Positions 20,525 to 55,800 of a DNA stretch of 64,000 bases are shown here, one piece after another. The notes under the pieces are model-generated. The model did not search any database and had not been told where the DNA came from. It saw only the letters and a list, made by a program, of their open reading frames with translations. Numbering within the stretch: position 1 is the stretch's first letter; each line of letters opens with the position of its first letter. The position numbers and the translations under genes were made by a program. Source of the DNA: Candidatus Poribacteria bacterium (GTDB lineage Bacteria > Poribacteria > WGA-4E > WGA-3G); assembly GCA_963665235.2 (NCBI GenBank), contig CAXXLX010000001.1, positions 3,008,001 to 3,072,000 on the forward strand, given 5' to 3'.

Positions 20525-21421
20525 ATGACACCTTTTAAGTTCGCCTTTATTACGGACACACATCTTTATCCAAATGCCCCCAAAAACTTTGCAAGTGGGC
20601 TTCAACAGCAAAAAAACAGTCTTGCCCTTTACAAAAAATTGATAGGGCAACTGAACGCATTTGACCCTGCATTCGTGATTCATGGCGGAGACATTGTGTG
20701 CGGCGGAAAAAGTTTCGATATGCCAGTAGACGAATATGAAGCAGCACTAGAGACCGCAAAACTACTGGGGGAACGCCTAAATGCCCCCTGCTATTATATA
20801 CCGGGCAACCATGATTTAGACCCTGAAACAGGCTCCAAAGCCGCCTATTTAGAGCAATTCGGCATAAACGGCATGGGGTCCGTCAGTTTCACCCACGAAA
20901 ACGTCCGGTTTATTCTGCTCGATGCACAAGAAGTTCCGGAAGACCTGACGCATGGATATGTCAGCACGAATCAACTTGCATGGGTCGAACGCGAATTAAA
21001 AAGAGCCGATGACTACGGTGAAGAAATCTTCATCTTCTCGCATCAACTCCCCTTTCCAAGCGTTGAATTTCAGGGAACCGGCTCCAGAATTGCCAACTCC
21101 GCAGAAATCCTCGAAATTGTCGCACCTTTTGAAAGACACATTTTAGCCTTTTTTTGTGGACATTTACATCTTAACCGTGTCTTCAGGGAACAGGGAATGT
21201 TATGCATCGTCACCTCCGGCATTATCTGCTACCCGATGATGTGGCGGCAGGTCTATGTATACCCCGACCGAGTTGATATAAAATCTGTCGCTGTTGACCT
21301 GCCAGAAGTCGTTGCTGAATCTGAAGCCGTCAGTCCAGATAACAATCTATATCTGTTAGGTCGGCCCAGAGACCAAGAATTTAGTATCCCACGGCGAAAT
21401 GAAGGAATTGTTAGGGAATGA
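20525..21421 (+). CDS. Calcineurin-like metallophosphoesterase
   Basis: TDTH, HGGD, PGNHD, FSH and GHLH motifs. Confidence 0.9.
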   Translation: MTPFKFAFITDTHLYPNAPKNFASGLQQQKNSLALYKKLIGQLNAFDPAFVIHGGDIVCGGKSFDMPVDEYEAALETAKLLGERLNAPCYYIPGNHDLDPETGSKAAYLEQFGINGMGSVSFTHENVRFILLDAQEVPEDLTHGYVSTNQLAWVERELKRADDYGEEIFIFSHQLPFPSVEFQGTGSRIANSAEILEIVAPFERHILAFFCGHLHLNRVFREQGMLCIVTSGIICYPMMWRQVYVYPDRVDIKSVAVDLPEVVAESEAVSPDNNLYLLGRPRDQEFSIPRRNEGIVRE

Positions 21422-22422
21422 TTAAAGTTCAAAACCTCTCAAAAAACTACGGCCCATTTAAGGCACTCAAAGATATCTCCTTTACCGTAGACACGGGGCA
21501 AATTGTCGGGTTTCTTGGGCCTAACGGGGCAGGTAAAACCACGACGATGCGAATCTTGACCTGCTTTATGCCCGCAAGCAGCGGAAAAGCCACAGTCGCA
21601 GGGTACGACGTTTTCAAAGAATCCCGCGAGGTACGCAAACGTATCGGATATCTGCCAGAAAACGTCCCGCTCTACCTGGAAATGACTGTCACAAAATACC
21701 TCTCTTACATGGCAAAGATACGAGATGTCCCCCGTAAACAGAACGCAGAACGGTTGGATAATGTTATTGAGGCATGCGGTTTAACCGAACGACGGCATCA
21801 GATTATTGGGCAATTGTCGCGCGGTTTCCGACAACGCGTCGGTTTAGCACAAGCACTCGTCCATGAACCGGAAGTCCTAATTCTGGATGAACCAACATCC
21901 GGATTAGACCCACGCCAAATTGTCGAAATCCGAGAGTTGATTAAACTGCTCGGCAAAGAGCGAACCATCCTTTTCAGCACACACATCCTTCCCGAAGCAA
22001 GCATGACGTGTGAACGACTACTGATTATCAGCCAGGGCAGGCTCGCCGGGGATGTTGAATTGTCCAACGGGCGCGCTGTATCTACACGAACCTTCGTAGA
22101 TGGTGACTCCTCGCTTGAACCCGCTACTTCGGAAGAAAACGCAGGCCCGATAAAAACACTCACTCTCGTGGTGGCAGACGGGCCCCCTGATGATATAGCG
22201 AATGCACTCAGCGGCCTCCCAGACGTGATTACGGTTGAACAAGCTGCTGACAGTGCTGATGACGCGGCGACATTTCACGTTCACTATACTTTGGAAAAGG
22301 ATATTCGGGCGATGCTGGCAAAAACTGTCGTCGCGCGTGGATGGAATCTATTGGAAATGCGTATCGACGAGATGAGTTTGGAGCGATTGTTCCTGTCCCT
22401 AACCTCCAAAACGCCTAGATAG
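21418..22422 (+). CDS. ABC-2 type transporter ATP-binding protein
   Basis: Walker A GPNGAGKT, signature LSRGFRQR, Walker B LILDEPT, H-loop STH. Confidence 0.93.
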   Translation: MIKVQNLSKNYGPFKALKDISFTVDTGQIVGFLGPNGAGKTTTMRILTCFMPASSGKATVAGYDVFKESREVRKRIGYLPENVPLYLEMTVTKYLSYMAKIRDVPRKQNAERLDNVIEACGLTERRHQIIGQLSRGFRQRVGLAQALVHEPEVLILDEPTSGLDPRQIVEIRELIKLLGKERTILFSTHILPEASMTCERLLIISQGRLAGDVELSNGRAVSTRTFVDGDSSLEPATSEENAGPIKTLTLVVADGPPDDIANALSGLPDVITVEQAADSADDAATFHVHYTLEKDIRAMLAKTVVARGWNLLEMRIDEMSLERLFLSLTSKTPR

Positions 22423-22482
22423 GGACGGTTCGCCAAGTAATAGGCATTCTCCGTATACCCTACATAAAAAAATCTTTTTCCC

Positions 22483-22511
22483 TTGACAAACTTTCGGTTT
22501 TTGTATAAAAT
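22483..22511 (+). promoter_or_regulatory. Sigma70-like promoter P1
   Basis: TTGACA-17 nt-TAAAAT. Confidence 0.65.
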
Positions 22512-22573
22512 AGAATCTGTGATAGACACCCAGCTAAAGAATCTATAAAGACTTTTGAGAAAAACATTTTTCC

Positions 22574-22601
22574 TTGACTTTTTTTCAAAATTTTGTATAA
22601 T
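22574..22601 (+). promoter_or_regulatory. Sigma70-like promoter P2, just upstream of the structured region
   Basis: TTGACT-16 nt-TATAAT. Confidence 0.6.
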
Positions 22602-22607
22602 TGTTAA

Positions 22608-22975
22608 TGATTTCAAATTGTGACGGTCAACTTGTCCGGATACACCCTATTCTACAAGAAGCATCGAGGCTAATGTCTGCTTTAGACAAAACCCTAAGGG
22701 GGCGGTTTGTACCCATCGGTATCAGGACAGATGCTCAACGCCAACGAAAGGTGACAAAAATGCAAAATGCAAACACCGCTCGAAATATTAAGAGAATGTG
22801 TGCAATCCAGCTGAGCCAATCTGATAGTTGGTCTCTGCACCATCTCTTTGCATCTTCACCCGTCACACGTTTTATTAGCTTATCGTTAACCCCCCCCCTT
22901 AATAATTTAAACAATCGTAATAGTATATTAGATATCAACGGGTCAGTATTGAGAGTAGCTGCTGGCCTGTTTTTG
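22608..22975 (+). ncRNA. Candidate unassigned structured RNA (sRNA or cis-regulatory leader)
   Basis: Multiple nested stems (tgtgacgg/ccgtcaca, tgtccggatac/gtatcaggaca, atgcaaa/tttgcat, gtgca/tgcac), with a promoter upstream and a terminator-like hairpin downstream. Confidence 0.5.
22937..22975 (+). terminator. Intrinsic terminator-like hairpin upstream of the 23136 gene
   Basis: aacgggtcagta / tgctggcctgtt stem with G-U pairs, followed by a T-run. Confidence 0.55.
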
Positions 22976-23135
22976 TGCCTGCGCGTTCTCTTTCTTGTGA
23001 AGGAGGTTTCGTTGCGGGCTATTTTGTTTGCAGAAATCGGGATGGACGCATCCCGACAAAGCACTAACGCTACGTATCAAGGGACTTGTACTGTTTTGTC
23101 CCATCTACCTTAAGTTTTAAGAAAGGAGTTATTAC

Positions 23136-23957
23136 ATGAAAAAGCTGATAATAGCTGTAACTTTTACGCTCGGGTATCTCTTCGCGATAGTCGTTAGTCC
23201 AATGCTCGGGCACGCTGCTCCCCTCGGCGAAGTCGCAATCTTTACCGAACAAGCTGGTTGGATTGCACTAGACAAAGCCAAGGAGGAAGGTAAGGAATTG
23301 GCAGACCTACTCAAGAAACCCGCGAAGGTCGTCACACTCGGCGATCAGGAAATCGGAGAGTGGGCTGAAGAACGCATCGATAACGATATATCTGACATCA
23401 TTGTTACATTCGGTTGGTTTCCAACTACACTCTATAAACCCGGGAACGCTGAACCGGACGATTCTATTGCTGAAAAATTCCTTGAAGGCGGAAATGTCAT
23501 CCTCAATACTGCGGATTATATTTTCTATGTTACAGAAGGCGGCGGCGCAAACGGCGTGGCCGGCCTACAGAATATGATGGACCTCAATAATGTTGAGATG
23601 TGGTCGGACGGAACCGCTATCGCCCCGACAGAGGATGGCAAGAAATATACGCCCAGCCTCAGGAATTTTGTCTCAGCCCGGACCTTCAAAGCAGACCAAA
23701 TTGTAGATCCGTGGGAAGTTGAAGTGGTTTTCGGTGATAACGGTGCGGGGTTTCTGGATCCGGCCATTGTTCACGATACCGAAACTGGGGGCCGCATCGG
23801 AATTGCTTTTCAAGAACCCAATGTACCAACCCTCCCACGCGGTAAGGTCCTAGCCGAAATGATCGATAACTATCTCGCTGAAGTACTCGGGGCACACGCG
23901 GTCGACCCAAACGCCAAGGTCACCACAACCTGGGCGCAAATCAAATCAGATTTTTAA
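23136..23957 (+). CDS. Secreted hypothetical protein (paralog 1) with the C-terminal KVTTTW tail
   Basis: Signal peptide, RBS aaggag, high similarity to 24050-24868; ends VDPNAKVTTTWAQIKSDF. Confidence 0.85.
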   Translation: MKKLIIAVTFTLGYLFAIVVSPMLGHAAPLGEVAIFTEQAGWIALDKAKEEGKELADLLKKPAKVVTLGDQEIGEWAEERIDNDISDIIVTFGWFPTTLYKPGNAEPDDSIAEKFLEGGNVILNTADYIFYVTEGGGANGVAGLQNMMDLNNVEMWSDGTAIAPTEDGKKYTPSLRNFVSARTFKADQIVDPWEVEVVFGDNGAGFLDPAIVHDTETGGRIGIAFQEPNVPTLPRGKVLAEMIDNYLAEVLGAHAVDPNAKVTTTWAQIKSDF

Positions 23958-24049: not shown

Positions 24050-24868
24050 ATGAACATTAGAAGTCTATTATTCTTATTGGCAATCCCCGTTGCCTTTACT
24101 TTCACGGCATCTAGCTGGGCAGCCCTCGGCGATGTCGCCATTTTCAGCGAAGCTGCCGGATGGATTTCAAAAGAGAATGCTGACATCCAGCGCGCTATTG
24201 TCTTTGATAATCTGCAAGACGCGGTCCCTGCTGTCGACGAGGTCGTCTATAAAACCGATGCAGAAATCGGACCCTGGGCAGAAGAACGTATCGACGATGG
24301 CATCGCAGACATCATTATTGTGTTCGGATGGTTCCCAACAACGCTTTACACCCCCGGAAATGCCCAACCTGATGATTCTATTGCCGAACGGTTCATCTAC
24401 GGCGGCAATGTTATCTTAAATTGTGCTGACTATATCTTCTATGTTACCGAAGGCGGCGGCGCAAACGGGGTAGCCGGCTTGCAGAATATTATCAATCTCA
24501 ACGTAGATATGTGGGGGGACGGAACGCAAATTACCCCAACTGACGTTGGAAAGGAATTTACACCCTCTCTTGTAGATTTTACCTCCGGACGACCGTTTAA
24601 AAGTGAGCAGATCGTTGATCCGTGGAGCGTTGAAGCCGCTTTTGGTGATAACGGAGCAGGATTTTTCGATCCCGGTATCATTAAACTCAACGACAGCAGC
24701 GGACGCGTCGGAATTTGCATGCAAGAACCCAATGTAGGCGACCTTCCCCGTGGACAGGTGCTTATTGAGATGATCGATTTTATCTCGCAACAAGCAGATA
24801 TAGCTACACCTGTTGAACCCGCAGGAAAAGCATCTACGACATGGGGACATCTCAAAGCTGTACGCTAA
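24050..24868 (+). CDS. Secreted hypothetical protein (paralog 2) with the C-terminal KASTTW tail
   Basis: Shares FGWFPTTLY and ADYIFYVTEGGGANGVAGLQN with paralog 1; ends VEPAGKASTTWGHLKAVR. Confidence 0.85.
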   Translation: MNIRSLLFLLAIPVAFTFTASSWAALGDVAIFSEAAGWISKENADIQRAIVFDNLQDAVPAVDEVVYKTDAEIGPWAEERIDDGIADIIIVFGWFPTTLYTPGNAQPDDSIAERFIYGGNVILNCADYIFYVTEGGGANGVAGLQNIINLNVDMWGDGTQITPTDVGKEFTPSLVDFTSGRPFKSEQIVDPWSVEAAFGDNGAGFFDPGIIKLNDSSGRVGICMQEPNVGDLPRGQVLIEMIDFISQQADIATPVEPAGKASTTWGHLKAVR

Positions 24869-55406: not shown

Positions 55407-55656
55407 ACTATGCTCCTTTTTTATTGTATAAGTTAACGTGATTTCGAAAAAACTACATCCTTCTATGCAATAAACCCCTTCGCCTATTCCTGGCACTTCA
55501 AAGGCACATGTGCACTCAGCGGAATGTCGGTTTCGGCAACACCCTCCGCTTGTAGGTTTCAATTCCCTTCAAACAAGCAAGTAGATGTGCACGCGCAGAG
55601 TTATCTGCAATTGCAGTATGCACTGAATTTCAATTCCCTGATCTGCCGGCGGCCAC

Positions 55657-55800
55657 AATTTTACGAATACGGGCAGGTTAGCGAAAAACTCGACAGCAAA
55701 CGATTTTAGCGTGTCTAAAACCGATTACTTGCCAAGCAGAAAATTGCCTGCACGTTATTATTGATTATACACCCTAAAAAAGCGTTTGTCAAGTTAAAAT
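55657..55800 (-). promoter_or_regulatory. Copy D of the repeated promoter plus long-hairpin leader module
   Basis: Minus strand TTGACA-17 nt-TATAAT and the same hairpin as copy B. Confidence 0.75.

Follow-up and report, generated by a model that had tools for sequence, protein, structure and literature searches.

A poly-C-containing leader cassette that might couple translation to transcription of putative secreted-protein genes in Poribacteria

A 713-base gap in the genome of a Candidatus Poribacteria bacterium (NCBI GenBank assembly GCA_963665235.2) holds the element described here. The gap lies within a stretch of 64,000 nucleotides (nt) of contig CAXXLX010000001.1 (positions 3,008,001 to 3,072,000 of the forward strand), which is called the window and to whose numbering coordinates refer unless a contig is named. 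It is flanked by a gene for an ABC-transporter ATPase (21418-22422) and by a pair of paralogous genes (23136-23957 and 24050-24868) whose products are putative secreted proteins, and all of these genes are on the plus strand. Positions 22574-23135 are one copy of a leader cassette that is, among the genomes searched, specific to one Poribacteria family and whose parts occur in the following order: a promoter, a 5' leader, a ribosome-binding site (RBS) with an upstream open reading frame (uORF) that begins with ATG or GTG, a run of C residues (poly-C), a variable hairpin, a terminator-like hairpin with its U tract, two further hairpins, and the gene. On balance, we favor the view that the cassette is a translation-dependent attenuator, in which transcription of the downstream secreted-protein genes is coupled to translation of the uORF. 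Poribacteria are abundant, uncultured symbionts of sponges, and to our knowledge almost nothing is known about their gene regulation. Literature searches on regulation in Poribacteria and on homopolymeric tracts in leader peptides returned no description of the cassette.

Cassette family and distribution

The cassette is a multi-copy family. A covariance model, R1, was built from 12 sequences and extends from the poly-C run to just past the terminator. R1 matches occur in 70 of 112 genomes of the family to which the window belongs, with up to 13 matches per genome. In a sample of the phylum, they are present in 57 of 99 genomes of this family, and none was found, with strict filters, among the 51 genomes searched from eight further families of Poribacteria. 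The match of the window to R1 (22890-23050, 127.1 bits, E 9.5e-30, model positions 1-161) is there by construction, since the window is among the 12 sequences from which the model was built; independent copies score 33 to 170 bits. With an nhmmer profile of the R1 matches, 25 cassette copies are found in the source genome, one of which is inside the window.

A BLAST search of the whole intergenic stretch against the source genome and 40 relatives returns fragments only, namely the promoter module and 3' pieces, and homology emerged from an alignment of the regions that precede orthologous genes. These upstream regions are of two kinds. In genus g3 and in the genus of the window, the leader is long, clearly homologous, and preceded by a conserved promoter, and in genus g6 it is short and unrelated. 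One g3 genome (G021) carries five full leader copies, each upstream of a different open reading frame (ORF), and all five of these ORFs have a hydrophobic start and end in ..KL(T/S)TTWGxLK... At most of the sampled orthologous loci in g6 (L021, L024, L025, L027, L032, L033, L036, and L037), the same gene pair follows a cassette-free leader of roughly 100 nt that has a promoter of its own. A cassette is present at one locus of g6, L079, so the orthologous loci seem to have undergone gain or loss of the cassette.

Two cassettes of the source genome are adjoined by tandem direct repeats with units of about 30-33 nt that begin TTGTAGCATAAAC.., on its contig C2 (about 55,450-55,780) and its contig C1 (about 503,800-504,000). 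The repeats on C2 sit between the cassette and its gene. They might be a second kind of variable tract.

Promoter and 5' leader

The main promoter (22574-22601, plus strand) reads TTGACT-16-TATAAT, with a TG ahead of the -10 hexamer, and matches 11 of 12 positions. A second promoter-like site, TTGACA-17-TAAAAT, is located upstream of it on the same strand (22483-22511) and also matches 11 of 12 positions. An earlier note on this DNA, made from the sequence alone, had pointed out both sites, and both are present where that note placed them. Their number is by itself not above chance, as a promoter scan finds 2 sites in comparison with 1.7 +/- 1.3 in shuffled sequences. The main promoter is kept in the homologous leaders, where it consists of TTGACA, a T-rich/GAAA spacer, and TGTATAAT. 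Sites like the upstream one precede the main promoter in two related loci, and no contig from the RNA runs covers 22483-22511. The scan of the window reveals no promoter-like site between the terminator and the genes.

Transcription would begin at about 22608. The 5' part of the leader (22608-22746, plus strand) contains local hairpins (22631-35/22654-58 and 22674-78/22684-88) and a G run (22699-22706) that is predicted to pair with poly-C in both the minimum-free-energy (MFE) and the centroid folds. This part is homologous to the related leaders and variable in length, and its hairpins lack covariation support. The alignment used for such comparisons, A3, comprises 15 homologous leaders from the promoter to poly-C. 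Three small 5' hairpins were also considered as a conserved structure and rejected, with 72.4% of alignment cells paired versus 70.0% in shuffles and a covariation equal to that of shuffles.

The promoter and roughly the first 30 nt of the transcript are repeated at another place in the source genome (L002, contig C1, 3478079-3478147), which is 84% identical to window positions 22567-22633. This copy is without the poly-C cassette and lies about 110 nt upstream of an ORF with a GKT (P-loop-like) motif. The similarity may represent a shared promoter module.

The upstream reading frame

The uORF (22760-23113, plus strand) comprises 117 codons and a stop, and spans poly-C, the terminator, and the three hairpins designated P1, P3, and P4 below. 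It is preceded by a purine-rich RBS, AAAGGTGA (22747-22754, plus strand), and its stop codon (23111-23113) follows the 3' end of the terminator stem by 91 nt and precedes the ATG of the first gene by 22 nt. The sequence AATGC at its start is invariant in all 15 homologous leaders. From this start to poly-C, the uORF frame contains no stop codon in any of the 15 leaders, in comparison with 29 and 59 stops in the other two frames.

The same arrangement is found in all 25 copies of the source genome, each of which has an ATG (20 copies) or a GTG (5 copies) located 93-150 nt upstream of poly-C, with a frame that is open into the run. The corresponding distance for the window's ATG at 22760 is 130 nt. 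A clear match to the Shine-Dalgarno pattern is present in 16 of these 25 copies, and the sites found in other copies are of the GGGGGA, GGAGG, or AAGGA type, 6-10 nt upstream of the start codon. Among 18 copies examined in other genera, 17 have a poly-C run, the one without being L058. Of these 17, 16 have one frame whose open part begins 132 to 279 nt upstream of the run; the other two frames close within 37 nt in 14 of the 16, and L051 has two frames that are open over slightly more than 100 nt.

The peptide itself is poorly conserved. Column entropies for the three codon positions of its homologues are 0.77, 0.84, and 0.70. Ahead of poly-C, substitutions per site by codon position are 0.188, 0.158, and 0.195, with 80 synonymous versus 213 non-synonymous codon differences. 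Behind poly-C the values are 0.289, 0.276, and 0.281, with 92 synonymous versus 546 non-synonymous differences, where the longest open frame was taken, perhaps not always the true one. In addition, the homologous terminator region is read in different frames by orthologues. To judge from these patterns, the uORF peptide is not under purifying selection, and it is the openness of the frame alone that is selected. A frame that is kept open while its peptide is unconserved is the signature of a regulatory leader ORF. A 170-codon ORF in the stretch was considered as a protein as well and was rejected, as it has no match to a Pfam family and no coding signature.

Terminator-like element and 3' hairpins

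The hairpin P1 (22937-22971, plus strand) is conserved in position and variable in sequence. A hairpin is present at this position in most of the MFE folds of the 25 source-genome copies, with unrelated stems, as judged by eye and not counted. It is followed by a longer hairpin (22977-23019) and, directly after it, a U tract (23020-23029), so that 22977-23029 on the plus strand constitutes an intrinsic-terminator-like element. The earlier note had proposed hairpins at 22937-75 and 23037-56 and had described the former as terminator-like. Both do fold, but the conserved terminator is the hairpin that comes next after the former.

Covariation supports this terminator. Across 37 distinct R1 matches, 95.6% of the cells of the hairpin are paired, versus 87.3% in shuffles, and 46 cells have changed on both sides of the pair versus 16.6 expected. 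None of 500 shuffles reaches either value. These figures come from an alignment fitted to the R1 model, which favors the structure; in slid controls of the terminator, 35-51% of cells are paired. The stem, which is of unusual length, contains internal loops, and its inner part (22987-23006) is also picked up by a simple scan.

Two hairpins lie between the U tract and the start codon of the gene. P3 (23037-23056, plus strand), which is the perfect hairpin of the earlier note, is directly 3' of the U tract, and P4 (23081-23102, plus strand) is closed by GGGAC/GUCCC. An equivalent of each is found in all 11 orthologous leaders, with differing stems, and P3 is also present in the MFE folds of paralogues in the source genome. 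RNAalifold missed P3 and P4 because the alignment between the U tract and the ATG is out of structural register, and the two hairpins were therefore established sequence by sequence. The order of parts that recurs in the MFE folds of the 25 source-genome copies is poly-C, an A/U-rich spacer, P1, the terminator with its U tract, and P3.

The poly-C run and frame state

The poly-C run of the window (22890-22898, plus strand) consists of nine C residues, which are read as Pro-Pro in the uORF. Directly 5' of it is a small A/U-rich hairpin (TTAGC/GTTAA, 22875-22889, plus strand) that appears in MFE folds and is paired in 69% of the cells of A3, without covariation support. The run is 7-10 C long in all 25 source-genome copies and 7-31 C long across 20 close copies, and in the aligned copies it is pure C rather than mixed proline codons. 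The longest run, of 31 C, is that of L046 (genome G086, contig C2, about 777,749-777,909), where it encodes at least 10 consecutive prolines and the uORF is still in the long frame.

Counted from the run, the three frames of the window end at +9, +1, and +212 nt, and the 3' end of the terminator stem is at +121. In each of the 25 source-genome copies, at least one frame stops within 22 nt past poly-C, and at least one stays open beyond the terminator, for at least 152 nt. On the sense strand, 25 of 25 copies have a frame that is free of stops over the 150 nt after the run, versus 6 of 25 on the antisense strand; in 200 dinucleotide shuffles, the number of copies with a 150-nt open frame is 10.75 on average and 18 at most. 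The uORF is long in 10 of the source-genome copies, including that of the window, and short in 15. In the window's subfamily it is long in 20 of 20 copies, although their poly-C runs vary between 7 and 31 C; relative to the 3' end of the terminator stem, the stop lies between -15 and +311. One C more or fewer puts the stop 73-127 nt upstream of that end in 19 of these 20 close copies; in the remaining one, L051, the search pattern did not place the terminator. Poly-C may set the frame, in that a change by one C shifts the stop to just behind the run.

The frame state goes along with the kind of gene that follows. The 10 long copies of the source genome are exactly the 10 that are upstream of ORFs with the C-terminal TTWG motif described below, and none of the other 15 copies is long. 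In other genera, the cassettes of genes like P0002 are long in four of four cases, with 8, 8, 10, and 12 C, and those of a homologous gene of about 480 amino acids are short in six of six, with 9-11 C. Metagenome scans for poly-C length returned 0 loci with a locus-specific pattern and 7 loci with a family-level pattern, which are too few for a test.

Transcription

Contigs from a strain that is approximately 92% identical to the window are present in three metatranscriptome runs of one study. An RNA contig of 764 nt extends from about 22622 through the terminator to 23402 and thus joins the leader to the first gene, and another extends from about 22626 to 23091. Transcription of the segment, which the earlier note had given as a point to check, is in this way indicated in a related strain. 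Positions 22454-22615 are without RNA contig cover and are covered by a DNA run. An RNA library can also hold DNA, and parts not covered by RNA were not used as evidence, except as a weak hint at the 5' end. The extents of the contigs agree with transcription that starts from the promoter at 22574-22601 and continues into the gene, although as evidence they are weak. The ends of four RNA contigs at 23091 and the starts of two at 23062 resemble a break in the assembly rather than a transcript 3' end. The RNA-run strain lacks 2 nt at 22924, and the frame entered after this loss, as read from the window sequence, is open through the terminator to about 23065.

Genes downstream of the cassettes

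The first gene of the pair (RBS at 23122-23128) encodes a protein of 273 amino acids that ends in ..KVTTTWAQIKSDF, and the second encodes a paralogue of 272 amino acids that ends in ..KASTTWGHLKAVR. Both proteins have an N-terminal hydrophobic segment that is signal-peptide-like, as judged by eye. Both were scanned, and neither matches a Pfam or NCBIfam family. In an Atlas search they fall in clusters found only in Poribacteria. In one of these clusters 55% of the members carry DUF4960, which is no more than a lead to function. Of 61 family genomes, all 61 have an orthologue of the first gene.

Both proteins carry at their C-terminus a motif of the form ..(V)(E/D)P..KL(T/A)TTWGx(I/L)K... In the source genome, a motif of this TTWG type ends 68 ORFs of at least 120 codons, of which 12, located behind 10 cassettes, have a cassette directly upstream on the same strand. 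The motif looks like a lineage-specific C-terminal sorting or anchoring tag, and it is covered by no NCBIfam or Pfam model. Many of the ORFs with this motif carry Laminin_G_3 domains. A mobile element similar to a miniature inverted-repeat transposable element was considered as an explanation of the copy number of the cassette and, with no formal search for terminal inverted repeats, set aside: the copies carry a promoter, and 10 of 25 directly precede TTWG-motif ORFs on the same strand.

For 20 of the 24 other ORFs downstream of source-genome cassettes, taken as the longest ORF that starts within 1 kb of each cassette, Pfam matches were collected; the four left out are three ORFs of less than 160 amino acids and one second gene. 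Ten of the 20 score above a family cut-off, with Laminin_G_3 as the best match in five and 3keto-disac_hyd, F5_F8_type_C, FGE-sulfatase, PD40, and DUF4007 in one each. Two have weak matches only, and eight have none. The DUF4007 gene (E 5.5e-91) is located downstream of a short-state cassette (L143, contig C1, 1819583-1820509).

The proposed large RNA fold

The earlier note had read the segment as a structured RNA domain of about 250 nt, closed by a helix between 22619-26 and 22860-67, and had suggested either a new class of noncoding RNA or an attenuator that controls the two paralogous genes. Much of what it described is present, including the promoters, the hairpins, and all eight of the complementary segment pairs that it listed, and the large fold is the part that is not supported. 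The note had recognized no signatures of several known RNA families, and the 64,000-base window has no Rfam match at gathering thresholds. A permissive search of 22300-23250 (E up to 10) gives one minus-strand match, PK-HAV, with 23.6 bits versus a gathering score of 50 and an E-value of 2.7.

The folding energy of 22605-22980 is ordinary. Its MFE of -91.2 kcal/mol compares with -84.55 +/- 5.29 for shuffled sequences, a z of -1.26, and among 100 such sequences 10 are as good or better. Over the 15 homologous leaders, RNAalifold finds 0 conserved pairs. The 53 pairs proposed by the earlier note are paired in 63.7% of cells, versus 62.7% in shuffles (50 of 500 shuffles reach the value), and their covariation score is 0.107 versus 0.103 (107 of 500 reach it). 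The closing helix is paired in 45.7% of cells and gtgca/tgcac in 27%; tgtct/agaca alone pairs well (93% of cells), without change on both sides. With 0 pairs from RNAalifold and proposed pairs that do no better than shuffles, the 250-nt domain is not a conserved RNA structure, and most of it coincides with the coding part of the uORF. The suggestion of an attenuator is supported in substance by the cassette's own promoter, by a covarying terminator hairpin with a U tract, by the lack of another promoter-like site between it and the genes, and by a contig that runs into the first gene; what it lacked is the reading frame and the poly-C run.

Proposed mechanism and alternative explanations

A translation-dependent attenuator, the reading that we consider rather probable, would work as follows. 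A strong promoter of the sigma-70 type at 22574-22601 would start a leader of about 530 nt. A ribosome would initiate at the ATG at 22760, read the nine C residues, continue through P1, the terminator, P3, and P4, and stop at 23111-23113, just ahead of the start codon of the gene. By trailing RNA polymerase through the terminator, the ribosome would block formation of the hairpin, so that transcription would reach the genes. If the uORF is not translated, the terminator would form and the transcript would end at about 23029. That the hairpin terminates transcription, that ribosomes relieve termination, and that some signal is read by this means is what we infer from the arrangement of the parts.

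Several observations weigh against this mechanism or limit what can be built on it. The copies are paralogues and orthologues, so that their counts are not independent and the statistic on frame openness is overstated. The contigs cannot reveal 3' ends, transcript levels, or minority variants, and the RNA runs are all from one study. In MFE folds of 15 of the 25 source-genome copies, poly-C is paired with the G run of the RBS of the uORF, which suggests a different or additional mechanism. Because the run is C and not mixed proline codons, it presumably has a role at the level of the nucleic acid that the model does not need. Also, the stop of the short copies precedes the 3' end of the terminator stem by about 100 nt, whereas in the pil1 leader of Streptococcus gallolyticus it is 39 bp upstream of the terminator. 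Finally, the frame state is fixed for each downstream gene family and kept across species, which a freely flipping switch would not give.

Poly-C may serve as a slippery switch, acting in either DNA or RNA, or as a site at which ribosomes pause at Pro-Pro. The former would be a special case of the attenuator in which a hypermutable poly-C run is the control input: gain or loss of one C, in the DNA or by slippage of RNA polymerase, would flip the uORF between a short form with the genes off and a long form with the genes on, and would give mixed cell populations. Such phase variation would account for the frames in all 25 source-genome copies, of which at least one stops within 22 nt past the run and at least one is open for 152 nt or longer, for the effect of a single C on the stop in 19 of 20 close copies, and for a run that is pure C and varies from 7 to 31 among related copies while its flanks align with few gaps. 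The GCAGA repeats of pil1 are a precedent. The state nevertheless follows the gene family across species (20 of 20 long in the window's subfamily; four of four long and six of six short in the two other families; 10 of 10 versus 0 of 15 in the source genome). The two DNA contigs of run X4 that span poly-C gave no reported difference in its length, and neither did the window and the RNA-run strain, in which A and 8 C replace the 9 C, in contigs that drop minority variants. We regard phase variation as possible and rather doubtful. The pause site would make the cassette a physiological sensor, in which a ribosome pausing at Pro-Pro(-Pro), to be resolved through EF-P activity or charged tRNA-Pro, decides whether the terminator is masked or, in a variant, whether Rho loads on C-rich, unstructured RNA. 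The run is read as two or three prolines in every copy, and a frame state that is stable for each gene family is what a sensor would need. The leader ORFs mgtL and mgtP of Salmonella, with their proline codons, and the pyrBI attenuator follow a similar logic. Yet selection for proline alone would allow CCA, CCG, and CCU, and the tract is nevertheless kept as a homopolymer; release of the ribosome in the short copies takes place about 100 nt ahead of the terminator, which a pause there could hardly mask; and nothing links secreted lectin-like proteins to the supply of proline. A sensor of this kind is accordingly an unlikely explanation.

Two readings dispense with an attenuator altogether. The uORF might be an ordinary small-protein gene (117 amino acids in the window, 40-60 in short copies) that has its own signals and is merely upstream of the secreted-protein genes. 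A promoter, a Shine-Dalgarno site, a start codon, an open frame, and a terminator are indeed all present and conserved. The peptide, however, is without purifying selection and without a Pfam match, and orthologues differ in frame behind poly-C. In the window's subfamily, moreover, the ORF crosses what would be its own terminator. The link to the genes that follow is also at odds with it: 10 of 25 copies directly precede same-strand ORFs with the TTWG motif, which is found on 68 ORFs of the genome, the scan of the window gives no promoter-like site between the terminator and the gene, and a transcript contig joins the leader to the gene. We consider a small-protein gene improbable. Still less credible is a large structured noncoding RNA of a new class that acts as RNA itself, even though the segment has its own promoter and a terminator-like element, is transcribed, contains every complementary segment that was listed for it, and matches no Rfam family. 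Its folding energy and the lack of conserved pairs among 15 homologues, with a closing helix that is paired in fewer than half of the cells, are set against it, as is the frame that is kept open across the domain. The related RNA-run strain also seems to be without about 15 nt at 22654-22668, one arm of a proposed pseudoknot, to go by the loose-end letters of contigs. Comparative tests have largely refuted this reading already.

Tentatively, about 25 poly-C-gated attenuators per genome might switch individual exported lectin-like, sulfatase-maturing, and defense genes by gain or loss of one C, in the DNA or through slippage of polymerase. If this is true, the symbiont population in one sponge would be a mosaic of surface and secretome types, and the conserved consensus states would represent the majority favored by selection, alongside a minority of cells in the opposite state.

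Comparison with known systems

The attenuator, with or without such a switch, would define a candidate regulon from sequence alone, in which numerous exported, carbohydrate-binding Laminin_G_3 and discoidin proteins, a homologue of a sulfatase-maturing enzyme, and a DUF4007 gene would be located behind a translation-dependent terminator. It also bears on annotation: "intergenic" stretches of 0.4-0.6 kb in these genomes are neither empty nor structured RNAs, and the long ORFs inside them (170 codons here) should not be called proteins.

Contingency loci of Campylobacter, Neisseria, Haemophilus, and Helicobacter have a homopolymeric tract in the coding sequence or the promoter of the regulated gene. 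The cassette resembles them in its G/C homopolymers of at least 7 nt, in the many surface- and secreted-protein genes concerned, and in belonging to a host-associated bacterium, and differs in that its tract lies in a separate upstream ORF that would gate a terminator. The attenuators trpL, hisL, pheL, and thrL have ORFs of 14-30 codons with runs of regulatory codons and a scheme of 1:2, 2:3, and 3:4 hairpins, and control biosynthesis of the same amino acid. Common to both is a short translated ORF upstream of an intrinsic terminator, whose peptide is unimportant beyond a run of one codon. In contrast, the ORF of the cassette has 40-117 codons, no antiterminator is defined, and the genes controlled would be those of secreted proteins. 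The mgtL and mgtP ORFs in the mgtA and mgtCBR leaders of Salmonella are single loci with mixed proline codons and with conformational RNA switches responsive to Mg2+, ATP, or proline. They share with the cassette consecutive proline codons in a long 5' leader that governs elongation into the coding region, whereas the cassette is repeated.

The pyrBI and rph-pyrE leaders of Escherichia coli have an ORF that runs into or through an intrinsic terminator, and read-through hinges on the distance between RNA polymerase and the ribosome behind it. These leaders sense uridine triphosphate through pausing of polymerase in U-rich stretches and control pyrimidine genes, whereas the cassette has a poly-C tract and no apparent link to a metabolite.

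The closest counterpart is pil1 of Streptococcus gallolyticus. Experiments showed that long leader peptides, which stop within or behind a premature terminator, raise its transcription (Danne et al. 2014, PMC3894217). The likeness extends to a promoter, a leader ORF with a repeat tract inside it, a premature stem-loop terminator, and surface- or secreted-protein genes (PMC3894217), and also to short peptides that end ahead of the terminator and frames running into or past the hairpin that were proposed to block it. The same geometry is present in the window, where alternative frames end before the hairpin or within or behind it. The tract of pil1 consists of about 22 pentanucleotide GCAGA repeats, in contrast to a homopolymer of 7-31 C, and pil1 is phase variable, whereas the frame state of the cassette is conserved for each gene family across species and the cassette is known from the sequence of uncultured organisms in another phylum. 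Also unlike pil1, the cassette is present in many copies (25 in the source genome) upstream of many unrelated genes. The cassette would extend a leader-peptide terminator gate with a repeat tract, of which Streptococcus provides the only experimental example that we found, to a homopolymer tract and to another phylum. Mechanisms of this kind are known from pil1 and pyrBI, and what differs here is the homopolymer tract, the long uORF, the spread of many copies in front of unrelated genes, and the phylum.

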